Positions 1,768 through 29,453 are shown, counted from the first letter of the stretch. The stretch: 64,000 nt of DNA from Eubacteriales bacterium (GCA_045588085.1 JAZNDN010000081.1:1542-65541), one strand, 5' to 3'. Numbers and translations: made by a program. Notes: generated by a model not told the origin, from the letters alone.

Positions 1768-2000
1768 TTGGTTTTGGTGTGCAATCGACGGTTATACTTC
1801 GCTTTTTAAAATAAACTATGAACACTCGTACCAAAAAGCCTTGCTCGACTTAGCGTTGGGTAAGGCCTTTTGCTTTTTATTATGCTTTTGCCGGGCTCGC
1901 GGTATACGTTCCGGGTTCTTATTCTTTATTTTTACAACAAAAAATCCGGCAGGGCGGTAAAGCATCGCCTTGTCGGATTTTCTGTTTATGTGTTTTTCAT

Positions 2001-3026
2001 TCAGTCGATTTCGACAATCCAGCCCTCAGGTGCCTCAATACGTCCCATCTGAATACCGGTAAGGGTTTCATAGAGCTTCTTGGTGGTGGGGCCCATCTCG
2101 GTCATACCTGCGGGGAAGCAGATTTCACGGCCGTGGTCAACTATCTTGCCGACGGGGGAAATAACTGCCGCGGTACCGCAAAGACCGCACTCGGTGAAGC
2201 TGTCAAGCTCGCTCTTGCTGATAACGCGCTCCTCCGCCTCAAGTCCGAGGTATTCACGCGCAACTACCATAAGAGAACGGCGAGTGATAGAAGGAAGAAT
2301 GCTCTCCGACTTGGGAGTGACTACGCCGCCGTCCTTAGTAACGAAGATTACGTTTGCTCCGCCGGTTTCTTCAATTGTCGTGTGAGTTGCAGCATCAAGA
2401 TATACGTTCTCGTCGTATCCCTGCTCGTGAGCGTCTACAATGTTGTAAAGGCTCATTGCATAGTTAAGACCTGCCTTGATATGACCGGTTCCGTGAGGAG
2501 CCGCACGGTCAAGGTCGGAAAGTCTGAGAGTCAGAGGTCTGACACCTCCCTTGAAGTAAGGGCCAACGGGAGTGACGAGAATGCGGAACTGATACTCGGT
2601 TGCAGGCTTAACGCCGATAACCGCATTGGTTCCCATCATGTAGGGTCTTATATAAAGGGTAGCACCGGAGCCGAACGGGGGAACGTATGCGGCGTTAGCC
2701 TTAACTACCTTTTTAACTGCCTCGATAAACTTTTCCTTGGGGTAAACAGGCATTTTGAGTCTTTTCGCGGAATCCTCAAGACGCTGCGCGTTGAGGTCGG
2801 GGCGGAAGGTAACTATTCTTCCGTCCTCGGTGGTGTACGCCTTAAGTCCCTCGAAACAGGTCTGCGCATACTGGAATACGCAAGCGCACTCGTTAAGGGT
2901 AATGGTGTGGTCCGCGGTAAGAGTACCTTCGTCCCACTTTCCATCCTTATAATTAGATACGAAGCTGTAATCGGTTTCCATATAGCCGAAGCCGAGAGAA
3001 GCCCAATCTATATTTTTCTTTTCCAT
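2001..3026 (-). CDS. ilvE: Branched-chain amino acid aminotransferase (class IV)
   Basis: 341 aa. The N-terminus reads LGFGY..TDY....Y.DGKW, followed by FEGLKAY and GTGHIKAGLNYA, which are characteristic of IlvE. It is the last gene of the T-box operon. Confidence 0.9.
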   Translation of the reverse strand: MEKKNIDWASLGFGYMETDYSFVSNYKDGKWDEGTLTADHTITLNECACVFQYAQTCFEGLKAYTTEDGRIVTFRPDLNAQRLEDSAKRLKMPVYPKEKFIEAVKKVVKANAAYVPPFGSGATLYIRPYMMGTNAVIGVKPATEYQFRILVTPVGPYFKGGVRPLTLRLSDLDRAAPHGTGHIKAGLNYAMSLYNIVDAHEQGYDENVYLDAATHTTIEETGGANVIFVTKDGGVVTPKSESILPSITRRSLMVVAREYLGLEAEERVISKSELDSFTECGLCGTAAVISPVGKIVDHGREICFPAGMTEMGPTTKKLYETLTGIQMGRIEAPEGWIVEID

Positions 3027-3036
3027 AACCGTCTCC

Positions 3037-3576
3037 TTAGTTTTTGTAATCTCTGCCCAATGACAAAGCCTTCATATTGAGCTCCTTGAGAGCTGCCTTC
3101 TTAGGCGGAACGAGCTTCTCAACTACCTCTTCAGCTCCGTCGAAGGAAAGCTCGGGGTGATTTTCAAGAAGATGACCGACTATAATCATGTTAGCAAGGC
3201 TGCTGATTCCCTCTTCCTTTGCCATCTGGGTTGCGGGAATATAGAACACGTCTACGTCATCTCTTTCTACCTTTGCATCGATAAGAGAGGAATCTACGTA
3301 TATCTGGCCGCCCTTGACTACCGTATCAGCGTATTTCTCAAGCGAGGGAAGGTTCATAACAACCAGCACGTCAGGCGCGGTTATGATAGGTGAGCCAACA
3401 GGAGTATCCGAAAGGATTACGTTACAGTTTGCGGTTCCTCCGCGCATTTCGGGGCCGTACGAGGGGAGCCAGGACACCTGAAGCTCCTCAACGAGTCCCT
3501 TGTAAGCCAAGAACTTTCCGGAGAAGAGTATACCCTGTCCACCAAAGCCTGCTATAAGTATCTCTGTGGTTTTCAT
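3037..3576 (-). CDS. 2-oxoacid:ferredoxin oxidoreductase, gamma subunit
   Basis: 179 aa. The N-terminal [13 protein letters not shown] motif is typical of OFOR gamma subunits. It overlaps the beta gene by 4 nt. Confidence 0.85.
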
Positions 3577-4331
3577 TTGCCCTCTGCCTCCTTTTCGGTT
3601 CTGTCTTTATATACACCCAAAGGATAATAAGGAAGCATATCGCTCTCTATCCATTCAAGCGCCTGCTTGGGAGTCATTCCCCAGTTGGTAGGACAAGCGG
3701 AAACTACCTCGACAAGCGAAAAGCCCTTGCCCTCAATCTGATTCTGGAACGCCTTTTTGATTGCCTTCTTGGCATTCTTTACGTTCTTTACGTTGTTTAC
3801 CGCAACGCGAGCTATATACTCAGGGCCCTCGAGAGTTGCAAGCATCTCACTAACCTTAATAGGCCAACCGCAATGCTTTACGTCACGTCCGTAAGGCGAG
3901 GTCTGGGTAACCTGACCGGGAAGGCTGGTAGGAGCCATCTGACCGCCTGTCATACCGTAAATTGCGTTATTTACGAAGATAACGGTTATATTCTCATTTC
4001 TTGCCGCGGAATGTACGGTTTCCGCCATACCGATAGATGCAAGGTCACCGTCGCCCTGATAGGTGAATACTACGTTTTCGGGGCGGCAACGCTTTATACC
4101 GGTTGCTACGGCAGGAGCTCTACCGTGCGCAGACTCTATCATATCACAGTTGAAATAATCGTATGCGAAAACGGCACAGCCTACGGGTGCAACACCGATA
4201 GCCTTACCCTCTATACCGAGCTCGTCAATAGCCTCTGCGACAAGACGGTGAATTATACCGTGAGGACAACCGGGGCAGTAGTGCAACGGCTTATCCGTCA
4301 AGGATTTCGGCTTTTCAAATACTATTGCCAT
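3573..4331 (-). CDS. 2-oxoacid:ferredoxin oxidoreductase, beta (TPP-binding) subunit
   Basis: 252 aa. It has a CPGCPHG cysteine motif and the TPP motif [11 protein letters not shown]...[11 protein letters not shown]. Confidence 0.9.
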
Positions 4332-4333
4332 AA

Positions 4334-5395
4334 TCAGAACTCTCCTTTCTCTGCCTTGAATATAGCAGAAAGCACCTCTTCGGGTGTAGGAATCATACCG
4401 CCTACGCGATTGCAGAGCGATATGGGCTTTTTACACTCGGTGGCAAGTCTTACGTCCTCTATCATCTGTCCCATGCTGAGCTCGACGGATATGAAGGATT
4501 TAACCTTATCTGCGGCTGCTCTGAGAGCTGCTGTGGGGAACGGCCAAAGGGTGATAGGACGGATAAGACCGACCTTTATACCCTGACGTCTTGCCTCTGC
4601 AACTGCATTTTTAGCTACTCTTGAAGCAATACCGAAGGCAACGACGCAAATCTCTGCATCCTCCATCATGTATTCCTCCCACATAGCCTCACTCTTCTCT
4701 ATTTCCTTATACTTTTCAAAGCGCTCAAAGTTCACCTTTTCGAGCTCATCGGCTTTCAGGTAAAGAGAGTTTACTATATTGTGCTTACGCTTGCACTCGG
4801 TGCCGGTAAGCGCCCAAGGCTTCTCGTAGGTTTCGGTTTCTGTGTCCTCAAAGGTTATAGGCTCCATCATCTGACCTATGGTTCCGTCAGCGAGAATCAT
4901 GGAAACCATGCGGTACTTATCTGCAAGCTCGAAGCCCTTGATTGTAAGGCTCGCCATCTCCTGAACCGAAGCGGGAGCAAGAACTATCATGCGATAGTCG
5001 CCGTGTCCGCCGCCCTTGGTTGCCTGGAAATAATCCGCCTGAGAGGGCTGAATACCGCCAAGACCGGGGCCTCCGCGCTGTACGTTAACTACGAGTGCGG
5101 GAACGTCTGAGCCTGCTATGTAGCTGAGTCCCTCTGCCTTAAGAGATATTCCGGGGCTTGACGAGGACGTCATAACGCGCATACCTGCCGCAGATGCTCC
5201 GTAAACCATGTTTATAGATGCAATTTCGCTCTCTGCCTGAAGGAACACTCCTCCGATTTTGGGCATTTTCTTTGCCATATAAGCGGCAATCTCGGTCTGA
5301 GGGGTGATGGGGTATCCGAAATAGTGACGGCAGCCTGCTCTGATAGCCGCCTCTGCAATAGCTTCGTTACCCTTCATTAAAATTCTTTCTGCCAT
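4334..5395 (-). CDS. 2-oxoacid:ferredoxin oxidoreductase, alpha subunit
   Basis: The ORF track starts at 5419 (a TTG). I prefer the ATG at 5395, which gives [22 protein letters not shown] and has AAGGAGG 8 nt upstream. The sequence is typical of OFOR alpha subunits. Confidence 0.85.
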
Positions 5396-5408
5396 AATAA
5401 TAGCCTCC

Positions 5409-5615
5409 TTACTTTTCAACCGTTATTATGCAATCGGGGCACATAGTAGCGCAGAAGGCACAGCCTATACACTTTTCCTGCTCCTTCATGTACGCCGGAG
5501 AATAACCCTTGGGATTGAGTTTATCCTCTGCGATTGCAAGACATTTCTTGGGGCAAGCGTCTACGCAAAGACCGCAGCCCTTACACATATCGGTGTTAAA
5601 AGTTACTTTAGTCAA
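5409..5615 (-). CDS. 2-oxoacid:ferredoxin oxidoreductase, delta subunit (2x[4Fe-4S] ferredoxin)
   Basis: 68 aa with a TTG start preceded by GGAGG. It has two CxxCxxCxxxCP motifs (CKGCGLCVDACP and CIGCAFCATMCP). Confidence 0.9.
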   Translation of the reverse strand: MTKVTFNTDMCKGCGLCVDACPKKCLAIAEDKLNPKGYSPAYMKEQEKCIGCAFCATMCPDCIITVEK

Positions 5616-5659
5616 TTTTTATTCCTCCTATTTATATCAGCCGCACACCCGACGCTACG

Positions 5660-6328
5660 TCAGAGTGGCAGGTCGAAATATTTCTTCTGAAGCGAAAGAG
5701 GCATCACGGGTATTCCCGAAAGCCCCTCGGCTACACTGCGCTCAGCGGTATGAAGCCAAATCGGAAGCCCGGTAGCCCTGCTTACGCTTTCTGCAAAGGC
5801 AACCGAATCCATAACCGTCTTTGGCGTAGTTTCTCTGCCAATATTAGAGTTGTTTACGATACAGTTGAAGCGTATCCCGCACGCCTCCTCTATTTCTCTC
5901 ATAATCTCCACGGCACCCTCTACGTCAGACGTCAGCGGTCTGTGGCAATTAAGAACGAACGCCATGCGGTAATCACCCTCTGCTTTTATCGCATCGGCAA
6001 ATCTTCCAAGCGCGTATGCGCCTCTGTCGTCACCGCCGATATCTACAACTCCGAAGCAGGATTTATCCTGAACGATGCGGTAGCTCGCCGCAGGAATTGC
6101 GGGAACGTCTACGTTCGTATTCGCATAATCAGAGCATATAAGCGTAATTCCGCGCTCTTTGAGCTCGCTCTCGCTATCCTTGGTTCTGAAATACGGATTC
6201 ACTATGTCCAAGTCAGCGATACATACCTTTTTGCCTTCATCTGCCAGAAGCATTGCATAGTTGACGGCAATATTGGTTTTGCCGCTGCCGTAATGCCCTG
6301 CAAAAAGGGTTAATCTTTTATGTTCCAT
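5660..6328 (-). CDS. P-loop NTPase of unknown role (MinD/ParA/GPN-loop-like)
   Basis: 222 aa. It has a Walker A motif GHYGSGKTN followed by ADLDIVNPYF and VVDIGGDD. I see no recognisable partner-specific motif. Confidence 0.6.
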   Translation of the reverse strand: MEHKRLTLFAGHYGSGKTNIAVNYAMLLADEGKKVCIADLDIVNPYFRTKDSESELKERGITLICSDYANTNVDVPAIPAASYRIVQDKSCFGVVDIGGDDRGAYALGRFADAIKAEGDYRMAFVLNCHRPLTSDVEGAVEIMREIEEACGIRFNCIVNNSNIGRETTPKTVMDSVAFAESVSRATGLPIWLHTAERSVAEGLSGIPVMPLSLQKKYFDLPL

Positions 6329-6367
6329 AATTCTTCTTTTCCACCGCGCAAGGCGGTGGACTTACAA

Positions 6368-8641
6368 TCAAAGTAATTTTCTTATTATCTTTCCGCTGGT
6401 AGTCTTGGGAAGACTCTCGTGGAATTCGACTATTCTCGGATACTTATAAGGCGCGGTACGGGACTTGACGTAATTCTGAATTTCGCGCTTAAGCTCGTCG
6501 GTTCCCTCGTGACCCTTTACAAGCACTATGCTTGCCTTTACGACCTGACCGCGAATTTCATCGGGAGCTGCCGAAACACCGCACTCAAGAACGTACGGAA
6601 GCTCCATGATAACGTTCTCTATCTCAAACGGACCTATGCGGTATCCCGACGACTTAATAACGTCATCGGCACGGCCGACGTACCAGAGGAATCCGTCCTC
6701 ATCGCGCCATGCAAGGTCTCCTGTATGATAGTATCCGTCACGCCAGGTTTCCGCAGTGATTTCGGGATTGCCTTCATAAGCATAAGCAAGTCCGCAAGGC
6801 AGACCGTTTGAAATATTTATGCATATCTCTCCGCTCTCACCGCTGGCAACCTCCTCGCCCTCGGAGCTAAGAAGATGCACGTCGTAAAGCGGTACAGGCT
6901 TACCCATAGAACCAATTTTATGGCTTCCGCCTGCAAGGTTACCGATAATAAGGGTGCTCTCGGACTGACCGAAGCCCTCCATAATCTTAAGACCCGTATG
7001 GTTCTCGAACTGGCGGAACACCTCGGGGTTAAGCGCCTCGCCTGCCGTCGATGCGTGCTCTATGCTTGAAAGGTCAAAGCGGGAAAGGTCCTGCTTGATA
7101 AGCATTCTGTACATCGTGGGCGGTGCGCAGAAGGTAGTGATGCTATACTTTTTGAACAGAGGAAGTATCTTCTCCGCATCGAAACGGTCAAAGTCGTATA
7201 CGAAGGTTGCCGCCTCGCAAAGCCACTGACCGTAAAGCTTGCCCCACATAGCCTTTGCCCAACCGGTATCGGATATGGTAAGGTGAAGTCCGTCGGGGTT
7301 GACCTGGTGCCAGTATTTTGCAGTAATGAAATGTCCAAGAGGATACTTATAATTATGCGCTGCAATTTTGGGATACCCCGACGTTCCCGAGGTGAAGAAC
7401 ATAAGCATAGGGTCTTCTCCGCAGGGAGCGTCCTCGGTGCGCAGGTAGTGGCTGCTGTATATTGTGTATTCGTCATCGAAGCTATGCCAGCCATCGCGGT
7501 TGCCTCCGACGAGTATTTTATGCTCAAGGCCGGGGCACTTTGCCGCCGCGGAATCTACCGAATCCGCGACCTCTCCGTCTGCTGTGCAGAGTATTGCCTT
7601 TACCTTACCGGCGTTGAATCTGTATTCAAAATCCTTCTCAAGAAGCTGATTCGGAGCGGGTATTGCAATCGCTCCGAGCTTATGTAAGCCGAGAATTGCG
7701 AACCAGAACTGATAATGACGCTTAAGAACGAGCATCACACGGTCACCGCGCTTTATGCCGAGAGATTTGAAATAGTTTGCAGCTCTCGCGGACTCTCTTT
7801 GCATATCCTTGAAGGTAAATCTGCGCTCGGTACCGTCACCGCTTATGTGAAGCATGGCAAGCTTATCGGGCTTGCGCGCACCGAGTGCATCAACGACGTC
7901 AAAGGCGAAATTGAAGCTGTTTTCGTTTTTGAAGGATATCTCGGTAAGAGCTCCGTCCTTTTCGACGGGAATAATAAAATCGTGATAAACTCTCTGCTGC
8001 TTGTCTTCATCGCGACGTTTGGTAGTTTCAGAGGCTGCTGCCTCCTGCTCTCCCTCTCGTGCCGCCTGATTGCGAAGCACGATAGCATAGAAGGAACAAT
8101 CCTCGCCGCCGACGGCTATCATTCCGTGAGGTGTGCCGGAATCGTAGTATATGCTGTCGCCCGGATTCAGAATTTCGGTATGGTCGCCTATCTGAATTTT
8201 CATCTGACCGGTTATGACGATATCGCATTCCTGACCCTCGTGAGTCACAAGCTCTATTTTCTCACCCTCAGCACCCTCATGGTAATTCATCTCCATGTAA
8301 AGAGGAAGTGCTATACGGTTACGGAAGCCTGATGCAAGGCTGTATCCAACCATGTGATGAGCCTCTTCTATTCGCTGACCGTCACCCTTTCTCGTCAGAG
8401 CGTAGGACCTGAGCTTAGGGCTTTTGCCCTCGATAATATCACCCATATCAACGCCGAAGCTGAGCGTGCAGTGGTAAAGGAATGCTATGCTGAGGTTTCT
8501 GTTACCTGCCTCACACTCCTCGTACTCGCTCTCGCTCATTCCGGTACGCTCTGCCATCTCGGCAACCGAAAGTCCGGTTATCTCACGCAGCTCGCGTATA
8601 CGGTCGGCAATCTGCTTTATCTTATGCTCCATTGTATCCAT
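6368..8641 (-). CDS. Fusion protein: XRE-type HTH + cupin domain (about aa 1-190) fused to an AMP-forming acyl-CoA synthetase (about aa 215-757)
   Basis: The HTH reads LSVAEMAERTGMSESEYEECEAG. The cupin reads GDSIYYDSGTPHGM. The adenylate-forming motifs are FFTSGTSGYPK, YHTGD and SGKIIRK. The RBS is AAGAGGTG upstream of ATG 8641. Confidence 0.85.
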   Translation of the reverse strand: MDTMEHKIKQIADRIRELREITGLSVAEMAERTGMSESEYEECEAGNRNLSIAFLYHCTLSFGVDMGDIIEGKSPKLRSYALTRKGDGQRIEEAHHMVGYSLASGFRNRIALPLYMEMNYHEGAEGEKIELVTHEGQECDIVITGQMKIQIGDHTEILNPGDSIYYDSGTPHGMIAVGGEDCSFYAIVLRNQAAREGEQEAAASETTKRRDEDKQQRVYHDFIIPVEKDGALTEISFKNENSFNFAFDVVDALGARKPDKLAMLHISGDGTERRFTFKDMQRESARAANYFKSLGIKRGDRVMLVLKRHYQFWFAILGLHKLGAIAIPAPNQLLEKDFEYRFNAGKVKAILCTADGEVADSVDSAAAKCPGLEHKILVGGNRDGWHSFDDEYTIYSSHYLRTEDAPCGEDPMLMFFTSGTSGYPKIAAHNYKYPLGHFITAKYWHQVNPDGLHLTISDTGWAKAMWGKLYGQWLCEAATFVYDFDRFDAEKILPLFKKYSITTFCAPPTMYRMLIKQDLSRFDLSSIEHASTAGEALNPEVFRQFENHTGLKIMEGFGQSESTLIIGNLAGGSHKIGSMGKPVPLYDVHLLSSEGEEVASGESGEICINISNGLPCGLAYAYEGNPEITAETWRDGYYHTGDLAWRDEDGFLWYVGRADDVIKSSGYRIGPFEIENVIMELPYVLECGVSAAPDEIRGQVVKASIVLVKGHEGTDELKREIQNYVKSRTAPYKYPRIVEFHESLPKTTSGKIIRKLL

Positions 8642-8815
8642 TTTCTACTTACACCTCTTTCATAAAAGTGTGGCGAAAGGCTGACCGCAACGTCCTGTGC
8701 GGAATATTTTCGCCTCAGCGATAACCAAAAGCTGCTGCGAGCGATACCCACGGCAGAATTGGGAAGATTTTTCGGAATTTTACTGTGCTCTGTCGTGCGG
8801 GAAATTGTCTTCGGG

Positions 8816-9060
8816 AATAAAAAAGCGTCTCAAGAAAGCATTCCTGAGACGAGTAGAATATACCCGCGGTACCACTCATTTTGCGGAAAAACCGCCACCT
8901 TTGACTCCTGCAAGCCATTGCCCTTAACGCGGGAAACGTAGAACCCTAACCGACGCTCAGGCTCTCAACTCGGAAGTGATGGGTACCATGGCTTTTTGCT
9001 ATCGGCTTGCACCGCCCGCCGACTCTCTGAAAGCTTATTTTGCCGTACCGTCTTCGTCAC
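8816..9060 (-). promoter_or_regulatory. T-box riboswitch leader, specifier AUC (Ile)
   Basis: The minus strand shows a Stem I base GTGACGAAG...CTTCCGAG, the AGAGAG element, the distal loop GGTGCAAG, and the specifier AUC (8980..8978) followed by A. The T-box sequence is AAAATGAGTGGTACCGCGGG (8882..8863). The terminator is CGTCTCA-12 nt-TGAGACG plus a U-tract (8851..8816). Confidence 0.8.
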
Positions 9061-9090
9061 AGTCTTTAAAAGTATTAAATTTACGAGAAT

Positions 9091-9119
9091 ATTATAGCAC
9101 CTCTTTTTCCAAATGTCAA
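9091..9119 (-). promoter_or_regulatory. Consensus sigma-A promoter driving the T-box leader
   Basis: The minus strand reads TTGACA (9119..9114), 17 nt, then TATAAT (9096..9091). It lies about 25 nt upstream of Stem I. Confidence 0.7.
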
Positions 9120-9224
9120 ATACTTTTTGTCAAAAAACCGCACAAAATTTCAAATAACACACATTTAAAGTTCGTGTATTCTATTAAATTACCGCCAAAA
9201 AACAAATATTTTTGACCTCTGCTA

Positions 9225-9253
9225 TTGACAAAATGCGGATTTAATGCTTAAAT
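9225..9253 (+). promoter_or_regulatory. Sigma-A type promoter for the LeuA-like operon
   Basis: TTGACA (9225..9230), 17 nt, then TTAAAT (9248..9253). The RBS AAAGGAG lies before ATG 9336. Confidence 0.5.
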
Positions 9254-9335
9254 ATATGTTATCTCTTGGAATTTGCACAAAAAGAATTCAGCAAACAGGT
9301 CCGAGCGATTTTTCTGAAAAGGAGACTCACAAGTT

Positions 9336-10739
9336 ATGAGACAAATTACAATCAGTGACGCAACAATGAAACAGTCCTCAGAGGAGCTTCGCCTTAGCTT
9401 TAAGGAGAAGATTGAGCTCTCTAAGCTCCTAGACAAGCTCGGAGTGGATATCATTGAGCTGGAGGGTATAAAAAATCCTCGCATTGATGCCTTGCAGATA
9501 AAGTCAATAGTCGCAGCAGTCAGCGACAGTCGCATAGCTGTTCCCGTCGAGCTGCTCAACAATGAAAATATCGAAAAAACCTGGGCTGCGCTGAAAAACG
9601 CAAAAAATCCAAGGCTTCAGGTTTGCGCGGCTACAAGCCCCGTGCAAATAGAATATCTCTTCCATAAAAAACCCGAGGCCATGCTTGAAGCTATAAGCAG
9701 CACCGTTGCAGCCTGCCGCGCGCTCTGCTCTGACGTAGAGTTCGTCGCGTACGATGCAACCCGCAGTGAATCCTCTTTCCTTGCCGATGCTATAAACGCG
9801 GCAATTTCAGCAGGTGCGGCAACGGTAACGCTTTGCGACACCGCAGGCACTATGCTTCCCTCCGAGTTCGCGGAATTTATCCGCGCTCAGTACGAGGCAG
9901 TTCCCAAGCTTCGCGACCTTACGCTCGGAGTTTGCTGCTCTGACACCATAGCTATGGCTGACGCTTGCGCAGTTATGGCAGCCGCAGAGGGAGCTGCACA
10001 TATACGTACGGCGGCATATTCACTCAGCGAAGCCTCACTTTCCAACGTAGTTCGTATTCTCTGTGCAAAGTCAGACTCGTTAAACGCTTCCGTCGGAGTA
10101 AGAGCGACTCAGCTCAGCCGTATAATTTCTCAGATAGAGCGTCTTTGCCAGACCGGCAAGAGCAAGAGCAATGCTTTGGAATCGGAGGATGACGGAACAT
10201 TCCTCACCGTTCACGATACGAAGGAAGCAGTTGCGGCAGCAACCGCCAAGCTCGGATACGACCTCTCGGACGAGGATGCCGAAAAGGTATACGCCTCATT
10301 CAAGCAGATTGCAGACAAAAAGGAAAAGGTATCCTTCAGAGAGCTTGATGCCATAGTCGCATCCTCTGCCATGCAGGTTCCCTCAACCTATAAGCTCGAT
10401 ACTTACGTCATCACCTCCGGAAACACAATTTCCGCAACCGCACATATAAAGCTTGAAAAGAACGGCCACCACGTTGAAGGCGTTTACATCGGCGACGGCT
10501 CAATAGACGCAGCGTTTCAGGCTATTGAAAAAATCACCGGCTGCCACTATGAGCTTGACGATTTCCAGCTCCAAGCAGTTACCGAAGGACGCGAGGCTAT
10601 GGGACAGACGATAGTTAAGCTTCGCTCGGGAGGAAAGGTTTATTCGGGAAGAGGCATCTCAACCGATATCGTTGGCGCGGGTATTCAGGCATACCTGTCC
10701 GCTCTTAACAAAATCATATACGAGGAGGAAGTAGAATGA
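9336..10739 (+). CDS. 2-isopropylmalate synthase-like protein (HMGL-like barrel + LeuA dimerisation/regulatory domain) with degenerate catalytic motifs
   Basis: 467 aa. The N-terminus ITISDATMKQSS..LSFKEKIELSKLLDKLGVDIIELEG parallels the LeuA region DTTLRDGEQ..LS.EEK. The C-terminus GDGSIDAAFQAIEKI...GRGISTDIVGAGIQAYLSALNKI matches the LeuA regulatory domain. The HxH metal motif is replaced by CCS. Confidence 0.75.
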   Translation: MRQITISDATMKQSSEELRLSFKEKIELSKLLDKLGVDIIELEGIKNPRIDALQIKSIVAAVSDSRIAVPVELLNNENIEKTWAALKNAKNPRLQVCAATSPVQIEYLFHKKPEAMLEAISSTVAACRALCSDVEFVAYDATRSESSFLADAINAAISAGAATVTLCDTAGTMLPSEFAEFIRAQYEAVPKLRDLTLGVCCSDTIAMADACAVMAAAEGAAHIRTAAYSLSEASLSNVVRILCAKSDSLNASVGVRATQLSRIISQIERLCQTGKSKSNALESEDDGTFLTVHDTKEAVAAATAKLGYDLSDEDAEKVYASFKQIADKKEKVSFRELDAIVASSAMQVPSTYKLDTYVITSGNTISATAHIKLEKNGHHVEGVYIGDGSIDAAFQAIEKITGCHYELDDFQLQAVTEGREAMGQTIVKLRSGGKVYSGRGISTDIVGAGIQAYLSALNKIIYEEEVE

Positions 10740-13246
10740 AGCTCTCCTTTTCAACAAGAGGCTGGCCCTCTCTTTCCTTTGACGAAATGCTCGACGTTGC
10801 CTCCGATATGGGCTTCTCCGGCGTTGAGGTTTACAATTTGACCAAATTCGATCCGTTAATGGAAAAGGGCGGACCCTTCCACAAATATAACATAGCCGCT
10901 ACCGTCCGCAAGCTGCGTGACAGGGCTATATCTATCCCTTGTTTTGACACGTCCATAGACCTTTCTTCCGACAAGAACGCTGTGGCATCTGTTATAAGCC
11001 TTATTGAAACAGCACACGGGGCAAGGGTTCCGTACGTTGCGGTTTGCGCTTTATCGGATGACGAGAAGACGGTGGGCGCGGCTCTGACAGAGCTTTTGCC
11101 GATTGCCACGGAGAAAAACGTCTGTATACTTATAAAAACCAGCGGCATTTATTCCAATACGGCAAGGCTGCGCGAAATGCTTGACAGATTTGCCAGCGAT
11201 AATCTTGCTGCTCTTTGGGACGTACACCATCCTTACAGAGATAACGCCGAGTCGGGTGACGACACTATAAAGAATTTGGGCTCGTATGTTTGTCACGTTC
11301 ACATGCGCGACTCCGACGACGAGGGTACCTATCAGCTTATCGGTGAGGGAACAATGCCGATAGACGACGTTATGCGCGCGCTTTCCTCGGTTAATTACGA
11401 TGCCTTCATCTCTCTTGAATGGAAGCCCGAATGGATGACCGACCTTCAAGACCCGGAGGTTATTTTCCCGTATTTTGTAAACTATATGTCACGTTTTCAC
11501 TCTACGAGAGATATGCAGAAGAGCCTTTACTTCAACCATGACGGCACCGGTCAGTACGTCTGGAAGAAGGATGAACTTATAGATTTGACCTTCTCGGAGG
11601 TTCTTGACAGAGTGGCTGACGAGTTCCCCGACCAGTATTGCTTCAAGTACACCACGCTGGACTACACGCGTACATATTCTCAGTTCCGTGAGGACGTAGA
11701 CCGTTTTGCCAGAGCCCTTGTTTCACTGGGCGTCAAGGCAGGCTCAAAGGTCGCAGTCTGGGCAACTAACCTACCCGCGTGGTATATAACGTTCTGGGCA
11801 ACGACCAAGCTTGGCGCGGTTCTCGTTACGGTAAATACCGCATACAAAATACACGAGGCAGAGTATCTGCTTCGCCAGTCGGACACTCACACACTCGTTA
11901 TGATTGAGAGCTGTCTTGACTCGAATTACAAGGAAATAATTAACACGCTCTGCCCCGAACTCAAGAAAACAGTACCCGGAGAGCCTCTGCACTCAAAGAG
12001 GCTTCCGTTCCTGCGTAACGTTATCACGGTTGGATTCAAGCAGGAGGGCTGCCTTACGTTCGACGAGGCAATGGCGCGTTACAGTCTTGTCAGCCGCGAG
12101 CAGATTGCCAGAATGGCGGCAGCGGTCAAGCCGAGCGACGTATGCAATATGCAGTACACCTCCGGCACGACGGGATTCCCCAAGGGTGTTATGCTCACCC
12201 ACTATAACGTAGTGAACAACGGAAAGTGTATCGGCGACCGCATGGGACTTTCCACCGCGGACAGAATGATGATACAGGTGCCTATGTTCCATTGCTTTGG
12301 AATGACGCTTTCCATGACGTCGTCAATGACGCACGGCGCCACAATGTGCCCGATGCCGTATTTCTCTGCGAAATCCTCGCTTGCTTGCATAAACCAAGAA
12401 AAAATCACCTGTTTTAACGGTGTTCCCACCATGTTTATTGCAATGTTCAACCACCCGAACTACCGCAGCACCGATTTTTCGCACATGAGAACCGGTATTA
12501 TGGCGGGTGCGGGTTGCCCCCCCGAGCTTATGAAGCGTGCCGCAGACCCCGCAGAGATGAATATGACGGGTATTGTAAGCGTTTACGGACAGACCGAGTG
12601 TGCCCCCGGTAACACCATGAGCTCCTGGACGGATTCTCTTGAGGTCCGCACCGAAACAGTGGGCTGCGCATTCCCTCACGTTATGTGTAAAATAGTAAAT
12701 CCCGAAACCGGTGAAGAGGTTGGCCCGGGTATCAACGGTGAATTTTGCGCCAAGGGCTACAACACCATGAAGGGCTACTACAAGATGCCCGATGCAACGA
12801 AGGGCACTATCGACGAGGAGGGCTGGCTTCATTCAGGAGACCTTGCCTGCCGTGACGAAAACGGAAACTACAAAATCACAGGACGTCTGAAGGATATGAT
12901 TATCCGCGGCGGTGAGAACATTTACCCCAAGGAAATTGAGGAATTTATATACACGCACCCGATGACCAAGGACGTGCAGGTCATAGGAGTACCCGACAAG
13001 AAGTACGGCGAAGAGATTATGGCGTGTATCATTCTCAAAGAGCCCGGAAGCATAACGGTGGAAGAAATGACGGCTTATATCAAAGCCAGCATGGCGCGCC
13101 ACAAGGTCCCCAAGTACATTGAGTTCGTCGACAGCTTCCCTATGAATGCAGCAGGAAAAGTTCTCAAATACAAAATGCGCCAGGATGCAGCGCAGCGTCT
13201 GGGACTCGTCGGCGATGGCTCAGATACGGCTTCTCCCGGAAAATAA
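10736..13246 (+). CDS. Fusion protein: xylose-isomerase-like TIM barrel (sugar phosphate isomerase/epimerase family, about aa 1-260) fused to an AMP-dependent acyl-CoA ligase (about aa 290-836)
   Basis: The TIM-barrel part reads GFSGVEVYN, HVHMRDSD and YDAFISLEWKPEW. The ligase motifs are YTSGTTGFPKGV, GWLHSGD and AGKVLKYKMR. The start overlaps the upstream stop (ATGA). Confidence 0.8.
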   Translation: MKLSFSTRGWPSLSFDEMLDVASDMGFSGVEVYNLTKFDPLMEKGGPFHKYNIAATVRKLRDRAISIPCFDTSIDLSSDKNAVASVISLIETAHGARVPYVAVCALSDDEKTVGAALTELLPIATEKNVCILIKTSGIYSNTARLREMLDRFASDNLAALWDVHHPYRDNAESGDDTIKNLGSYVCHVHMRDSDDEGTYQLIGEGTMPIDDVMRALSSVNYDAFISLEWKPEWMTDLQDPEVIFPYFVNYMSRFHSTRDMQKSLYFNHDGTGQYVWKKDELIDLTFSEVLDRVADEFPDQYCFKYTTLDYTRTYSQFREDVDRFARALVSLGVKAGSKVAVWATNLPAWYITFWATTKLGAVLVTVNTAYKIHEAEYLLRQSDTHTLVMIESCLDSNYKEIINTLCPELKKTVPGEPLHSKRLPFLRNVITVGFKQEGCLTFDEAMARYSLVSREQIARMAAAVKPSDVCNMQYTSGTTGFPKGVMLTHYNVVNNGKCIGDRMGLSTADRMMIQVPMFHCFGMTLSMTSSMTHGATMCPMPYFSAKSSLACINQEKITCFNGVPTMFIAMFNHPNYRSTDFSHMRTGIMAGAGCPPELMKRAADPAEMNMTGIVSVYGQTECAPGNTMSSWTDSLEVRTETVGCAFPHVMCKIVNPETGEEVGPGINGEFCAKGYNTMKGYYKMPDATKGTIDEEGWLHSGDLACRDENGNYKITGRLKDMIIRGGENIYPKEIEEFIYTHPMTKDVQVIGVPDKKYGEEIMACIILKEPGSITVEEMTAYIKASMARHKVPKYIEFVDSFPMNAAGKVLKYKMRQDAAQRLGLVGDGSDTASPGK

Positions 13247-13397
13247 ACAGCTCAGATGCGCAGTTTCTTTAAATGCCTTATACAAAGCCAAGGGACTGTC
13301 AGATTTAGGCATTACCGAATATTTTGTGCATGTTTTTATCATAATATGTAATATATGTAGATATTTGTTTACATTTCAATCAACTCTGCGATTTTTG

Positions 13398-13445
13398 ACA
13401 AAAAACATTCCCCGACCTTGTGCGTAGCGGCATGCAAGGTCGGGG
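13398..13445. terminator. Bidirectional intrinsic terminator
   Basis: The stem is CCCCGACCTTG / CAAGGTCGGGG (13410..13445). It is flanked by an A-run on one side and a T-rich run on the other. The U-tract is stronger on the minus strand, downstream of the DUF3021 gene. Confidence 0.65.
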
Positions 13446-13453
13446 TTCTTTGC

Positions 13454-13897
13454 TTAATATTGCATTTTCATATTCATTCGCCTGGTGGATATCTTTATAG
13501 CAAAATAAACGGAACACCATATTGCAAGATAAACACCAAGGAATACAAGTGTAAATATCAAAATTACCAAAGGTTCAAAGGGTATCCATGAATTTAACGT
13601 ATAACACAGCACGTACGCCACGTAAAGCGTTGAAAAATGGCACAGCAAGGATTTCGCTAACGGCCAATGCTCAATTTGGTTAAATATAGAAGCGCCTGCC
13701 TGAACAAAGGCAAGAAGATACGTTGACAAAATGGCAACGAAGACATCCGTGCCGCTAAATCTGACGCCGCCGTCGAGGACGTTATCCAAAATTATGAATA
13801 CAATTCCGCATATTATAGGACCGAATCCGGCAAAAATCGCACCTCTGTGCAAAAAGGTTTTTATATAATATTTTTTCGTATACTCTATATCATCCAT
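13454..13897 (-). CDS. Multi-pass membrane protein (DUF3021-like), partner of the LytTR regulator
   Basis: 147 aa with four hydrophobic segments and an FNQIEHWPL motif. It lies 17 nt downstream of the LytTR gene. Confidence 0.6.
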   Translation of the reverse strand: MDDIEYTKKYYIKTFLHRGAIFAGFGPIICGIVFIILDNVLDGGVRFSGTDVFVAILSTYLLAFVQAGASIFNQIEHWPLAKSLLCHFSTLYVAYVLCYTLNSWIPFEPLVILIFTLVFLGVYLAIWCSVYFAIKISTRRMNMKMQY

Positions 13898-13914
13898 TTA
13901 TATTCACCTCCGTA

Positions 13915-14361
13915 TCACAATCCGAGCGCCTTTTTAACCGTCTTAAGCTGACGGCGGGAAACGTAGTCAACGTACCCCGAAGCGAAGCTTATCGTCATTG
14001 CCGCTCCGAACGAAGCACCAAAACGCTTAATTTTCTTTATATTGGCAAGAGAAGACTGATTTATCTTGACAAATCCCGCAAGCTCCATTTGCTCTATCTC
14101 GTACAGGCGTTTTTTTATCCTATACTTTCCGCTGTCGCAGATGGCGAAAAGACGTCTGTTTTCAATTACGAAAACATTTATCTCGTTTATATCAAGACGT
14201 ATCGACTGCTCACCGTCATATCCGATGATTTCATCGTTTCCCGAATCCTCAGCAAGCTTTATTATTTCTCGTATTTTATCGGTTTGCTCTCTGGCGTAAA
14301 TCTTGATTTCTTCTTCTTTTACGTCATTGCTTATATACAAGCTGCATTTCATGCGCCTCAC
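13915..14361 (-). CDS. Stand-alone LytTR-domain DNA-binding regulator (no receiver domain)
   Basis: 148 aa. The C-terminal FVKINQSSLANIKKIKRF......ISFASGYVDYVSRRQLKTVKKALG is typical of LytTR domains. Confidence 0.75.
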   Translation of the reverse strand: MRRMKCSLYISNDVKEEEIKIYAREQTDKIREIIKLAEDSGNDEIIGYDGEQSIRLDINEINVFVIENRRLFAICDSGKYRIKKRLYEIEQMELAGFVKINQSSLANIKKIKRFGASFGAAMTISFASGYVDYVSRRQLKTVKKALGL

Positions 14362-17140: not shown

Positions 17141-18226
17141 TCAGATGAGCTTTTTGAGATATCCCTCTCTGTAAAGAAGCTCTGCGATAAGAACTGCACC
17201 GCCGGCAGCTCCGCGAAGAGTGTTATGCGAAAGGCCTACGAACTTGAAATCGTAAATTGCATCGGAGCGAAGTCTTCCTACCGAAACACCCATTCCACGA
17301 TACAAATCTCTGTCAAGCTTGGTCTGAGGTCTGTTGTCCTCTTCAAAATAGGTTATAAACTGCTCGGGAGCCGAAGGCAGACCGAGAGACTGAGGCTTTC
17401 CGTAAAACTCTGCCCAATCCTTAAGTATCTGTTCCTTAGTCGGAGTGTTTTCAAATTTTACGAATACCGCTGCCATGTGTCCGTCGGAAACGGGAACGCG
17501 AAGGCACTGAGTGGTTATGGTTACGTCGGACGCGGGAACGATTTCACCGTTTTCAACCTTACCCCAAACACGAAGAGGCTCCTTCTCGCTCTTCTCCTCC
17601 TCACCGCCAATGAATGGAATGAGGTTATCTATCATTTCAGGCCACTCGGCAAAGGTCTTGCCTGCGCCGCTTATAGCCTGGTACGTCGTTGCAACTACCT
17701 CCTTAATTCCGTACTTGCGGAGCGGGGTCAGCGCGCCTACGTACGACTGAATAGAGCAGTTGGGCTTAACTGCGATAAATCCGTGCTCGGTGCCAAGTCT
17801 CTTCTTCTGAGCGGCAATTACCTCAAGATGAGCGTCGTTAACCTCCGGAATTACCATAGGAACGTCGGGCGTCCATCTGTGAGCAGAGTTGTTTGAAACG
17901 ACGGGAACCTCCGCCTTTGCGTAAGCCTCCTCGAGAGCGCGAGTCTCATCCTTAGTCATGTTGACTGCGCAGAATACGAAATCGCAAAGCGACTTAACCT
18001 TTCCGATTTCATCGGAAGAAATAATAGTCATACCTTTAACCTTTTCGGGACAGGGAACGGTCATCTTCCATCTTCCCTCAACAGCATCGGCATAGCTCTT
18101 TCCTGCCGAGCGGGGACCTGCGATAACCGCGCTTATTTCAAAATAGGGATGCTCTGAGAGAAGAAGTATGAATCTCTGACCGACCATGCCGGTAGCACCT
18201 ATAATACCAACCTTTAACTTTTCCAT
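17141..18226 (-). CDS. asd: Aspartate-semialdehyde dehydrogenase
   Basis: I moved the start from the ORF-track 18274 to ATG 18226, which gives MEKLKVGIIGATGMVGQRF. AGGAGG lies 6 nt upstream, and the predicted promoter lies downstream of 18274. The active-site region reads KPNCSIQ. Confidence 0.9.
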   Translation of the reverse strand: MEKLKVGIIGATGMVGQRFILLLSEHPYFEISAVIAGPRSAGKSYADAVEGRWKMTVPCPEKVKGMTIISSDEIGKVKSLCDFVFCAVNMTKDETRALEEAYAKAEVPVVSNNSAHRWTPDVPMVIPEVNDAHLEVIAAQKKRLGTEHGFIAVKPNCSIQSYVGALTPLRKYGIKEVVATTYQAISGAGKTFAEWPEMIDNLIPFIGGEEEKSEKEPLRVWGKVENGEIVPASDVTITTQCLRVPVSDGHMAAVFVKFENTPTKEQILKDWAEFYGKPQSLGLPSAPEQFITYFEEDNRPQTKLDRDLYRGMGVSVGRLRSDAIYDFKFVGLSHNTLRGAAGGAVLIAELLYREGYLKKLI

Positions 18227-18277
18227 GTTGCCTCCTGATACACCGCGTCTTATGCGCGGAAAATAAATAACCATCTC

Positions 18278-19521: not shown

Positions 19522-19958
19522 CTCAACTCAACCTCACATTTACCGAAATTATTTTCAACTACAAATTCCCTTATAGCACGGTAATCCGCAAGCTTCGCAC
19601 GCTCACTCAGCGTAACGGTCAGAACCTCCGCTGCCATTTTTTCGGTCTGAAATCCCTTGGCACGAACGCTGATATGCTCGGCATCAAGCGAAAATCTCTC
19701 TGCTATTGCAAGACGGACCCCGTCGCAGAACGCCTCCTCGGCAGTCTTTTCAAAAACGCTCTCCTCCTCAGCACCGGAGTATTCGGGAAGCTGTGCAAAT
19801 CCCTGCCCCAAAGAAATAAGAGGAGATAAAATAGCCGAGACCAGAATTATTCCAAGTGCGGCACGCGCCGCTCTCTCTGCCTTTCCCGACGATAAAACGA
19901 AGCCCGCAAACGCCACGGCGCAGGATGCACAAAAAATCGTAACAAGATGCGCGCTCAT
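19518..19958 (-). CDS. spoIIIAF: Stage III sporulation protein AF
   Basis: 146 aa with two N-terminal TM segments. It overlaps both neighbouring genes by 4 nt. Confidence 0.75.
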   Translation of the reverse strand: MSAHLVTIFCASCAVAFAGFVLSSGKAERAARAALGIILVSAILSPLISLGQGFAQLPEYSGAEEESVFEKTAEEAFCDGVRLAIAERFSLDAEHISVRAKGFQTEKMAAEVLTVTLSERAKLADYRAIREFVVENNFGKCEVELR

Positions 19959-21313
19959 ACCGCAGGAACTCCAAACTTTAAGAATATAATAACCTCTAAA
20001 ACATACACGAGTGATGAAAATGCGAAAACCGATATAAGCATATCAAAGGCATAAAGTGCCGATGACAGTATTCCCGCCCCCAGCTTTCCGCCGGTCATTT
20101 CCAAAAAGGAAATGCATATTCTGAATGCAATACGGTAAAGGAGCAGCTTTATAAGCGGCGCACCGAGAACGGTAAGCAATGCTGCAAGGGATACGGCACC
20201 AACGGTGCCCTTGGCAAGATTTACTCCGGAAGCGAGCGTTCCAAGGGCGGAGGAGACGCTTCCGCCGACTATCGGTATCATTCCGGAGATTGCATATTTC
20301 ATCCCTCTGAGCGTCATACTGTCCTGAGCTCCGGTTATCAACGTCTGCAAAGCAAGCGTTCCTGCCACTATGCTCGTCAAGCCTCCAAGCACAAGTGTGA
20401 AAAAGCTCTTAGCCCCTCTGATTACCGGTGCAACGCTGCCTCCAACGTCGAAGGAGGCTATGAGCCCGAGCGCCATCATGAGCATAACTATCGGAAGAAG
20501 CCCGTCCCTGACAAAAAACGACACGGCTGATAGGGTAAAGCTCATTCCCGCCGCCTCAGCAGCAGCCGTCGCAACCCCACCGCCTATTGCGCTTACCGAC
20601 GTAAAAACAGGTATCAGACCCGAAAAAAGCTCCGTTGCGGATTGCAAGCCGTCCCGAACCGAATATACAATTCCCGAAACAGAGGCAAAAATCGGAACCG
20701 AAAGAACCATAGCTACGCCGCCGGTCATGCCGGACGAAAGCTCTCCTGCATTGAAGGCGGTAAGCTCTGCGGCAAGCAAAAGAGCCGACACGCCAAACAG
20801 CATAATCAGAAATCCGCCAACCTCACCGTCTCCGCCAAGCAAATTCAAAACGGAGGAAACGACGTTATCCGGTGAAAATCCCGAGGCAAGCCCACTGAGG
20901 TCACCGTCATTGCCCACGTCGGCAAATTCACCGATATGTACGAAGAAACCGTCAAGTATTTCGGATAGCTCGTCTGAAAAATCCGCCCCCTCGGTGCCAA
21001 ACGGGTTGTCGGTGCCCTCAATTAAGCTGTATGAGCATGCGTGCGCATCAAGACGCTCGGTATATAAACCGTAGCACGCCCCCCGACCTGCACGCGCCAC
21101 AGAGAAAATCCCGGGAAGCAAAACCGCAACGCCTGCGGCAAAAAACAGCATCGCAAAAATCATGCGCCCTCTGCGCCCCTCGGGAAGCCTAGGGATTTTA
21201 TCCAATCCGCAGACCGAAGCATCGCGGCAGACGCGAGAGTGAAAAAGCGCGGAATTATTCTTTTCCAATCTTATCATTTCCTTTATGTCCTTTTTTTGCG
21301 GCAATTTTGACAT
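19955..21313 (-). CDS. spoIIIAE: Stage III sporulation protein AE (polytopic membrane protein)
   Basis: 452 aa with many Gly/Ala-rich TM segments. The first 50 aa, before MIFAMLFFAAGVAVLL, may not be translated, so the true start is uncertain. Confidence 0.8.
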   Translation of the reverse strand: MSKLPQKKDIKEMIRLEKNNSALFHSRVCRDASVCGLDKIPRLPEGRRGRMIFAMLFFAAGVAVLLPGIFSVARAGRGACYGLYTERLDAHACSYSLIEGTDNPFGTEGADFSDELSEILDGFFVHIGEFADVGNDGDLSGLASGFSPDNVVSSVLNLLGGDGEVGGFLIMLFGVSALLLAAELTAFNAGELSSGMTGGVAMVLSVPIFASVSGIVYSVRDGLQSATELFSGLIPVFTSVSAIGGGVATAAAEAAGMSFTLSAVSFFVRDGLLPIVMLMMALGLIASFDVGGSVAPVIRGAKSFFTLVLGGLTSIVAGTLALQTLITGAQDSMTLRGMKYAISGMIPIVGGSVSSALGTLASGVNLAKGTVGAVSLAALLTVLGAPLIKLLLYRIAFRICISFLEMTGGKLGAGILSSALYAFDMLISVFAFSSLVYVLEVIIFLKFGVPAV

Positions 21314-21712
21314 TTACGCGGAATACTCGAGAAAGCCGAGCCCCGTGTCAACAATTTTGCGAAAATACGGCAGACAAATACAGATTATTTCAAGGCGCGA
21401 TGCCAGAGTAACGCTCTTTGCAAGACCTCCCTCGCCCATTTCCGAGAAGGCGTCTGCAAGAACCCCGCACAGAAAGCCAACCGCAATAATTTTAACGGCA
21501 GCACGCGCGTATTCGTAAATCCCTCCGACAGCAGCCAGCTCCTGTATCTCGGAAAACACCCCCAAAAACGCCTCCGCATAAAGCGAAACTATTCCCAGTA
21601 TGCATAGCGAAACGAACACGGGTACGCCCTTCCACCCAAAAAGCTTTAATACCTGAGAGAGTATACCAACCAGAATGATAACTCCGAGAGTACGGGCAAA
21701 AAGCTCACTCAT
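21314..21712 (-). CDS. spoIIIAD: Stage III sporulation protein AD
   Basis: 132 aa, a four-TM small membrane protein. The call rests on its position in the array. Confidence 0.8.
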   Translation of the reverse strand: MSELFARTLGVIILVGILSQVLKLFGWKGVPVFVSLCILGIVSLYAEAFLGVFSEIQELAAVGGIYEYARAAVKIIAVGFLCGVLADAFSEMGEGGLAKSVTLASRLEIICICLPYFRKIVDTGLGFLEYSA

Positions 21713-21903: not shown

Positions 21904-21954
21904 GATTTCAACCTCTTTTCTTTGTCGTGGTACAATTTGCCCATGCTCCGATTT

Positions 21955-29435: not shown

Positions 29436-29453
29436 TTTTCTTTAACTCCTTTC

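Follow-up and report, generated by a model that had tools for sequence, protein, structure and literature searches.

The locus

A 64,000-nt stretch of DNA from a Eubacteriales bacterium (GCA_045588085.1, JAZNDN010000081.1), here called the window and numbered throughout from its first letter, carries on its minus strand a promoter, a T-box leader and seven open reading frames (ORFs). These encode, in order, a helix-turn-helix (HTH)-cupin::acyl-CoA ligase fusion, a P-loop NTPase, a 2-oxoacid:ferredoxin oxidoreductase (OFOR) in four subunits (delta, alpha, beta, gamma) that is putatively of the branched-chain type (2-oxoisovalerate:ferredoxin oxidoreductase, VOR), and the aminotransferase IlvE (Table 1). 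The region is probably a T-box attenuator that reads tRNA-Ile and gates an anabolic, seven-gene operon for the salvage of branched acids. On the comparisons set out below, the operon would be better described as a shared core for the formation of branched-chain 2-oxoacids that has become wired to tRNA-Ile.

The seven same-strand ORFs behind the T-box are separated by gaps of 39, 44, -11 (or +13 from the next ATG), 2, -4 and 10 nt. No convincing minus-strand terminator was found inside the operon, where the sole site is a 5-bp stem at 2181..2168, and the seven genes very probably form one transcription unit. The first-pass annotation of this DNA had described the same genes, domains and order, and had seen, at the gene junctions, no U-tract terminator until after ilvE; the Pfam and NCBIfam searches, the ORF calls and the hairpin with six U residues that follows the ilvE stop agree with it on both points. 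The 175-nt spacer between the leader terminator and the ligase start had gone unmentioned there.

Table 1. Positions of the features of the operon and of the divergent gene pair beside it.
Feature	Position	Strand	Basis or remark
Operon-end intrinsic terminator	1940..1981	-	18-pair bidirectional hairpin, minus-strand reading ends UUUUUU; 3' of ilvE stop
IlvE branched-chain aminotransferase (type II)	2001..3026	-	NF009897 456.7 bits (cutoff 307), TIGR01123 381.5 (cutoff 250)
OFOR gamma subunit	3037..3576	-	Pfam POR; NF006323 114.9 bits, below cutoff
OFOR beta subunit (thiamine pyrophosphate (TPP)-binding)	3573..4331	-	Pfam TPP_enzyme_C; in NCBIfam, 2-oxoacid:ferredoxin oxidoreductase beta models rank highest, none reaching its cutoff
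OFOR alpha subunit, VorB family	4334..5419	-	Pfam POR_N, PFOR_II; NF005507 VorB 553.5 bits (cutoff 399)
OFOR delta subunit, 2x[4Fe-4S] ferredoxin-like, 68 aa	5409..5615	-	Pfam Fer4; PorD_KorD and OGOR_delta below cutoff
SIMIBI-class P-loop NTPase, 222 aa	5660..6328	-	Adjoins VOR genes in relatives
HTH (XRE)-cupin::AMP-forming short/medium-chain acyl-CoA ligase, clade A, 757 aa	6368..8641	-	Pfam
Spacer of 175 nt, terminator to ligase start codon	8642..8815	-	Ribosome-binding site (RBS) GAGGTG near 8660
Intrinsic terminator	8816..8851	-	11-bp stem 8851..8826, 4-nt loop, then CUUUUUUAUU to 8816
Antiterminator 3' strand CUCGUCUCA	8853..8845	-	RF00230 alignment
T-box sequence AAAAUGAGUGGUACCGCGGG	8882..8863	-	RF00230 model positions 185-216 cover the 8882..8845 region
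Specifier AUC (Ile), then A at 8977	8980..8978	-	RF00230 model alignment
T-box leader (Stem I, Stem II/IIA-B region, Stem III, antiterminator)	8842..9069	-	Rfam RF00230
Sigma-70-type promoter, TTGACA-17 nt with upstream TG-TATAAT	9119..9091	-	12/12 consensus match
LeuA-like synthase, 467 aa	9336..10739	+	Pfam, NCBIfam; below all LeuA cutoffs; divergent from operon
Xylose-isomerase-like TIM-barrel (AP_endonuc_2)::AMP-forming ligase fusion, 836 aa	10736..13246	+	Pfam, NCBIfam

The T-box leader

The leader matches the Rfam T-box model over its entire length (9069..8842, model positions 1-219 of 219) with 96.6 bits (E 5.8e-20; the gathering score is 93), and is almost certainly a genuine T-box of the transcriptional type. 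The landmarks that align to the model are UGUGA of the kink-turn (K-turn), CAGAGAG with the AGAGA bulge, GGCGGUGCAA and CCCAUCA-CUUC; the distal GGUG loop is also present, and the promoter ahead of the leader is the top-scoring one within 10 kb. In the specifier loop the alignment reads CCC-AUC-A ahead of the closing helix CUUC. Across 41 related T-boxes the helices of Stem I covary, with compensatory changes at 10 of 13 pairs, including the helices that bracket the specifier, and the specifier alignment is thus anchored by structure. Two shifted frames were rejected: the +1 frame would give the stop codon UAG in the GUA class of related leaders, and the -1 frame would give His, Cys or Ser, mismatched to ilvE, to the LeuA-like gene and to the control at ileS described below.

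Further downstream lies AGUGGUACCGCGGG, the conserved T-box sequence with its UGGN bulge (8876..8863), in which UGGU at 8874..8871 is the partner for the 3' NCCA of the tRNA. The U of UGGU fits the A73 discriminator of tRNA-Ile, tRNA-Val and tRNA-Leu. The 5' arm of the terminator occupies 8851..8841, and because the antiterminator and the terminator both use 8851..8845, the two are mutually exclusive. Folded alone, the terminator gives -22.9 kcal/mol (z = -4.7). The minimum-free-energy (MFE) fold of the whole leader did not recover the T-box fold (z -1.4), a miss that is usual for switches with alternative folds, and for this reason the covariance model was used for the leader structure. No tRNA genes were found within the 64-kb window. 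The consensus promoter, the T-box leader, the terminator at 8851..8816 and the AUC specifier followed by A had all been proposed by the first-pass annotation, and each stood up when scored for consensus, aligned to the Rfam model or folded.

A second T-box in the window (52527..52762, plus strand; 65.2 bits, E 6.8e-12, below the Rfam gathering score) likewise has the specifier AUC. Its terminator lies near 52770..52806, and its T-box core (UAGUGGUGAU...) departs from the consensus. The ORF that follows (52914..56072, plus strand) encodes an aminoacyl-tRNA synthetase (aaRS) of class I, 1052 aa long and carrying DUF5915 as its tail, a layout that we take to fit type 2 IleRS (ileS). This AUC T-box before ileS is an internal control for the specifier assignment, showing how this genome uses AUC.

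Products of the seven genes

The ligase fusion is matched in Pfam by HTH_31/HTH_19, Cupin_2, AMP-binding (193 bits) and AMP-binding_C (70 bits). Its top NCBIfam model is MbcS, at 418 bits under an equivalog cutoff of 850, so that the protein is not filed as MbcS; its closest match in the PDB is 3ETC, the MacsMa protein (614 bits, 52% identity over 514 residues). All four OFOR subunits are matched as separate genes by Pfam, and the nearest solved relative of the alpha subunit is 1YD7. By profile search the last gene of the operon is identified as ilvE, both curated equivalog models having been passed.

The NTPase is harder to place. In Pfam CbiA barely passes (26.0 vs 25.4) and is a weak match, and the matches to ParA, Mrp, ApbC and ArsA are below curated cutoffs. 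Its family comprises 385 cluster representatives at E<=1e-30. The Walker A residues G11, G14, G16 and K17 and the DxGG motif are invariant. The AlphaFold2 (AF2) model has a predicted local distance difference test (pLDDT) score of 91.6, and its nearest folds are the signal recognition particle (SRP)/FtsY GTPases and ATPase-type HypB, at template modelling (TM) scores of 0.5-0.6; no PDB relative was found by sequence. Motifs and fold together assign the protein to the SIMIBI class (the MinD/Mrp/HypB/SRP group), without a named subfamily. As the family alignment contains no invariant Cys, a role as an Fe-S carrier of the NifH/Mrp type is unsupported.

Specifier codons and ligase paralogues in related loci

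The comparison covered 83 related Oscillospirales loci. An alignment of NTPase homologues retrieved 80 loci from Oscillospiraceae, Acutalibacteraceae, Faecousia, Christensenellaceae and unclassified Clostridia metagenome-assembled genomes (MAGs) that came from the guts of humans, ruminants, horses and birds; the collection has over 600 genomic matches, and metagenomic homologues of the cluster number in the thousands. In every locus long enough to show it, vorDABG comes next after the NTPase gene, and in most loci that reach that far ilvE lies directly before or after this core. Most loci have the ligase fusion upstream of the core; it is downstream in a few and absent in two, and in about half of the loci two ligase fusions stand in tandem. 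In 42 loci a LeuA-like/TIM-barrel::ligase pair accompanies the cluster, mostly behind a CUC/CUG T-box. In one contig, L084, an ELFV-family amino-acid dehydrogenase (11613..12644; top model Trp dehydrogenase ScyB, below cutoff) takes the place of IlvE as the last gene of the operon. This non-orthologous replacement suggests that the conversion of 2-oxoacid into amino acid is under selection.

A motif scan and alignment of the related loci gave 118 T-box cores, in which the columns that hold AUC in the window contain AUC, GUC/GUA or CUC/CUG/CUU; 15 of the specifier assignments were verified by Rfam model alignment (65-116 bits, E 6e-12 to 1e-24). These specifiers track the ligase paralogues. In a tree of 92 full-length fusions, two deeply separated clades, A and B, are seen. 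Clade A ligases have their own T-box with a valine specifier (GUC/GUA) in 36 cases, with an isoleucine specifier in one case, that of the window, and no own T-box in six; in clade B the specifier is isoleucine (AUC) in 46 cases and never valine, and three ligases have no own T-box. The leucine specifier is found ahead of the LeuA-like gene and the TIM-barrel::ligase gene in 26 cases, plus four likely ones. Homologous ligase-OFOR-ilvE operons had been named by the first-pass annotation as the place to look for a conserved T-box and specifier covariation, and the valine and leucine T-boxes that follow the ligase paralogues and the LeuA-like gene are what such a search brought out.

The isoleucine and valine leaders share idiosyncrasies (AGUGGUACCGCGGG...CUCGUCUCA) that the leucine leaders lack, which suggests that the T-box was duplicated along with the ligase gene and that its specifier was then altered by one base, AUC to GUC. 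In the ancestral layout, then, a leucine T-box would have headed the LeuA-like gene with its fusion ligase, an isoleucine T-box the clade B ligase, and a valine T-box the run of genes for the clade A ligase, NTPase, VOR and IlvE. Each T-box of L004 comes with a near-consensus promoter and a terminator of its own, and the same holds elsewhere by inspection. In that locus (4794..7684), as in other tandem loci, no terminator is seen between the clade B ligase and the next promoter and valine T-box. Transcripts from the isoleucine promoter thus run into the terminator of the valine T-box, and expression of VOR from the isoleucine promoter in these loci could depend on both tRNAs. A variant order is seen in L048, L051, L069, L071 and L079, namely LeuA-like gene, fusion ligase, ilvE, NTPase, vorDABG and a third HTH-cupin ligase, which is more distant (about 51% identity in the enzyme domain).

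The two clades share 40% identity in the HTH and 48% in the cupin, against 70% in the ligase domain. Fifteen positions separate the clades cleanly, 12 of them in the HTH-cupin, one in the linker and two in the ligase domain. Within the ligase domain, residue 462, directly after the conserved Trp of DTGW, is Ala in 42 of 43 clade A proteins and Gly in all 49 clade B proteins; MacsMa has Gly and the ligase of the window has Ala. By correspondence to acetyl-CoA synthetase we take this position to line the acyl pocket. Ala462 would fit a smaller pocket for a C4 acid in the valine-linked clade, and Gly a larger one for a C5 acid in the isoleucine-linked clade. Both clades are equally similar to MacsMa (50-52% identity). 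Our estimate is that the ligase of the window would accept both isobutyrate and 2-methylbutyrate, leaning to isobutyrate.

The HTH-cupin and linker (8641..7950, residues 1-230) hold 13 of the 15 clade-separating residues, and their divergence suggests that each clade may have its own ligand or operator. Searches for direct and inverted repeats round the promoter, and 115 aligned promoter regions, gave no conserved palindrome for the HTH to bind; with the operator searches empty, DNA binding by this module is conjecture.

The window as a reduced version of a larger array

In L002, L003 and L008 it is the second ligase that forms the sister of the window's ligase in the tree; there it has no T-box of its own and lies behind a clade B ligase driven by an isoleucine T-box. 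Comparison with L002 by blastn places the LeuA-like pair of the window (13246..9329) on L002 736..4656, the isoleucine leader (9257..8816) on 4951..5374, and the stretch from the clade A ligase through ilvE (8641..2017) on 7704..14349. Relative to L002, the window has lost the clade B ligase gene (L002 5374..7704), where the 175-nt spacer now stands, and the segment with the leucine T-box (L002 4656..4951) is reduced to 72 nt (9329..9257). No clade B ligase was found elsewhere in the 64-kb window. The single-ligase layout behind an AUC T-box recurs in L084, an independent metagenomic contig, and L082, from a similarly close relative, retains both ligases; together with the synteny to L002, these contigs indicate that the arrangement in the window is real and derived.

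The deletion of the clade B ligase and of the leucine T-box would thus have left a valine-type ligase and the shared core to answer to tRNA-Ile alone. The isoleucine T-box, which the first-pass annotation described at the head of this operon, came to stand directly ahead of this ligase through loss of the upstream isoleucine-type ligase. Three options follow for the present function: the ligase of the window may be promiscuous, or mainly valine may be made under isoleucine control, or a clade B ligase may lie elsewhere in the genome.

The spacer in which the deletion is placed was compared with the related loci for relics of the lost ligase or of a valine T-box, and 8815..8642 resembles them only at the RBS; Rfam gave no match in the spacer. 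It contains a short direct repeat, AGCGATA[A/C]CCA, at 8717 and 8740, and a 10-bp inverted repeat at 8669..8717.

Proposed mechanism and pathway

Transcription would start about 7 nt past the -10 box at 9091, and Stem I of the nascent leader would offer AUC to the anticodon of tRNA-Ile. With uncharged tRNA-Ile, the 3' NCCA would pair with UGGU, the antiterminator would be held and polymerase would pass 8851..8816; with charged tRNA-Ile, the terminator would form. We infer the dependence on tRNA from membership of the T-box family; the RNA elements themselves are seen in the sequence.

The gene products would then act in three steps. The AMP-forming ligase domain would turn a C4-C5 branched acid into its CoA thioester at the cost of ATP, the VOR-type oxidoreductase with reduced ferredoxin and CO2 would carboxylate the acyl-CoA to the 2-oxoacid, and IlvE would transaminate the 2-oxoacid to the amino acid. 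The enzyme classes are read from the sequence, and the substrates and the direction are what we infer. Induction of a T-box on amino-acid starvation argues for synthesis rather than degradation, and the AMP-forming, ATP-consuming type of the ligase supports the same direction. The preferred substrate of MacsMa is 2-methylbutyrate (PMC10455477). VOR-type reductive carboxylation is the accepted explanation of the branched-acid requirement of rumen methanogens (PMC2812497, PMC10658910), and the carboxylation proposed here is the reaction invoked for 2-methylbutyrate-dependent isoleucine synthesis in Methanobrevibacter ruminantium (PMC2812497, PMC10658910). The NTPase may be a dedicated accessory or maturation factor of the oxidoreductase, and the HTH-cupin module may provide a second, ligand-sensing layer of control. 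The route of activation, carboxylation and transamination had been drawn by the first-pass annotation; its general idea gains from the valine and leucine T-boxes, from MacsMa and from the dehydrogenase of L084, and specificity of this ligase for 2-methylbutyrate is not supported.

Several observations weigh against a salvage operon under tRNA-Ile control. A ligase of the valine-associated clade, with Ala462, must be promiscuous if isoleucine is to be made from 2-methylbutyrate under isoleucine control. The beta, gamma and delta subunits score under every curated cutoff and their top matches are generic or 2-oxoglutarate models, and VorB is a subfamily model only, so that the 2-oxoacid specificity is putative. 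The association of clade with specifier goes back essentially to one ancient duplication that was long maintained, and not to many independent events. In tandem loci the terminator of the valine T-box leaves unexplained how VOR would rise on isoleucine starvation alone. Rfam in its permissive mode found no T-box in L045, L048 and L071, so that a subgroup arranged as ilvE-NTPase-VOR-ligase lacks this control, and the similarly ordered L051, L069 and L079 have no T-box motif by a motif scan made without an Rfam scan; the gene set is thus not dependent on T-box regulation. Promoter-like sites with 9 of 12 matches also occur within the operon, for example at 6411..6384 ahead of the NTPase gene.

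Alternative explanations

It is rather unlikely that the operon is a dedicated pathway from 2-methylbutyrate to isoleucine with a ligase specific for that acid, as the first-pass annotation held. The AUC specifier, the substrate preference of MacsMa and the rank of MbcS as top NCBIfam model all favour it, but the ligase belongs to clade A, in which 36 of the 37 own T-boxes are of the valine type, and is sister to genes that stand behind an isoleucine-type ligase; it has Ala462 where clade B and MacsMa have Gly, MacsMa being no closer to one clade than to the other; and VOR and IlvE are common to the valine and isoleucine branches in relatives. Control of the ligase fusion only, with the NTPase, VOR and IlvE genes under a promoter of their own and an incidental link to tRNA-Ile, is unlikely. 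The site at 6411..6384, just upstream of the NTPase gene, and the existence of clusters without a T-box would suit this explanation; against it, sites of that quality occur at the chance rate (16 found vs 11.4 +/- 3.2 expected), no terminator follows the ligase gene, and throughout the family both the order of the genes and the 39-nt gap are kept.

Two further explanations reverse the direction of the last steps. In one, which is very unlikely, the ligase would scavenge acids as primers for branched membrane lipids, and VOR and IlvE would yield the same acyl-CoAs from amino acids. It draws on the MbcS match, since in Staphylococcus aureus the acyl-CoA synthetase MbcS supports the formation of branched-chain fatty acids out of carboxylic acid precursors (PMC11167679), but 418 bits is far under the MbcS cutoff, oxidative IlvE and VOR induced at isoleucine starvation would use up the scarce amino acid, no fab genes are linked in related loci, and the replacement of IlvE by an amino-acid dehydrogenase and the linkage to the LeuA-like gene point to amino-acid synthesis. 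In the other the operon would be catabolic, with branched-chain amino acids oxidised to acyl-CoAs by way of IlvE and VOR to gain energy or balance redox, as in fermenters of the Stickland type. OFORs and IlvE are reversible, and VOR/PorA-type enzymes work oxidatively in proteolytic clostridia (bioRxiv 10.1101/401489). This is highly improbable: a T-box turns on at amino-acid scarcity, a signal that does not suit degradation; the ligase consumes ATP and forms AMP, and is not an ADP-forming synthetase, and no phosphotransacylase/kinase pair is present; and the valine, isoleucine and leucine specifiers track separate ligases and a LeuA-like biosynthetic gene. A salvage operon gated by tRNA-Ile, with a shared 2-oxoacid-forming core and a valine-type ligase, is kept as the preferred explanation. 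The claim that this particular ligase activates 2-methylbutyrate for isoleucine is not supported, on the grounds of its clade, the valine T-boxes of that clade and Ala462.

A wider and more speculative scheme, which is possible though doubtful, would see in gut and rumen Oscillospirales a salvage regulon that answers to three tRNAs (Leu, Ile and Val), with specifier-matched ligases whose determinant is Gly or Ala at 462, co-diverged HTH-cupin sensors and an obligatory NTPase. If true, expression would need both amino-acid demand, read by the RNA switch, and a small-molecule signal, read by the protein switch, and the SIMIBI NTPase would be the partner that lets the oxidoreductase run in the carboxylating direction.

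Relation to known systems

The T-box itself is an ordinary member of its family, with the same RNA architecture and the same terminator/antiterminator logic as other transcriptional T-boxes (RF00230; the Bacillus subtilis tyrS and ileS leaders). In ilv-leu of B. subtilis a leucine T-box stands before genes for branched-chain amino-acid biosynthesis, and its specifier matches the amino acid served. Instead of the acetolactate-synthase route, the genes here encode an acyl-CoA ligase, an NTPase and an oxidoreductase that depends on ferredoxin, and relatives of the window place isoleucine and valine T-boxes in tandem within one array with a leucine T-box alongside. The usual targets in T-box surveys are aaRS, biosynthesis and transport genes, and these surveys mention no oxidoreductase, ferredoxin or acyl-CoA targets (PMC2494555, PMC3766115). 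A search of the literature on T-boxes, oxidoreductases, acyl-CoA and branched acids found no description of the regulon, a brief earlier mention being possible. New, as far as seen, are the content of the regulon (ligase, ferredoxin oxidoreductase, NTPase and aminotransferase), the tandem isoleucine/valine and leucine switches, and the regulator-enzyme fusion.

Among the proteins, the ligase is of the same AMP-forming type as MacsMa of Methanosarcina acetivorans, and it retains the Trp that belongs to the alternative acyl pocket (KYW); it differs in its additional N-terminal HTH-cupin module of about 230 residues and in having Ala462 in place of Gly. MbcS of S. aureus, the top-scoring model in spite of the score under cutoff, activates branched short carboxylic acids; it feeds lipid synthesis, and to our knowledge it is neither controlled by a T-box nor fused to a regulator. 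The oxidoreductase has the same delta/alpha/beta/gamma make-up as VOR, and its alpha subunit passes the VorB model. It differs in its setting, beside the ligase that would activate the acid, an aminotransferase and a dedicated NTPase, all behind a tRNA-sensing leader. The N-terminal 190 residues of the fusion align end to end, weakly (24 bits, E 2.5e-4), with the HTH_3/XRE-cupin regulator 1Y9Q. PuuR is a regulator of this HTH_3/XRE-cupin type, and BirA is an enzyme-regulator fusion; BirA likewise joins an adenylate-forming enzyme to a domain of DNA-binding type, a likeness offered as a lead only.

Branched-chain volatile fatty acids have long been known as growth factors of rumen and gut anaerobes, and labelling, mainly work of the 1960s, showed in rumen bacteria and methanogens that branched acids are carboxylated to valine, isoleucine and leucine; in Firmicutes the genes, the activating enzymes and the regulation have largely been assumed. 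The locus offers a complete candidate gene set for this route. Its specifier codons are built-in labels of which ligase serves which amino acid, so that ligase specificity, including the Gly/Ala difference at 462, is directly testable. The T-box regulon would be extended to ferredoxin-dependent, CO2-fixing chemistry, and the duplication of a T-box with a one-base change of specifier would be seen to accompany gene duplication. Two uncharacterised parts are also brought to notice, the VOR-linked NTPase and the HTH-cupin::ligase fusion. Since the cluster is widespread, it is relevant to amino-acid cross-feeding in the gut and to branched-acid supplementation in ruminant nutrition.

Flanking genes

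Divergent from the operon, the LeuA-like gene and the TIM-barrel::ligase gene overlap by 4 nt. No leucine T-box lies ahead of the LeuA-like gene in the window, where Rfam gave no match. Activation of isovalerate is one possibility for the TIM-barrel::AMP-ligase fusion protein. Farther out, the window contains an aspartate-semialdehyde-dehydrogenase-like gene, spoIIIAA, spoIIIAE and a GerA germination receptor (17141..18274, 19955..23321, 38560..39969); the source is probably a spore-forming member of the Clostridia. Large minus-strand ORFs at 56173..58434 and within 25122..32015 (753, 1437 and 853 aa) are almost without Pfam matches, the lone one being a copper-amine-oxidase N-terminal-like repeat in the 1437-aa protein.

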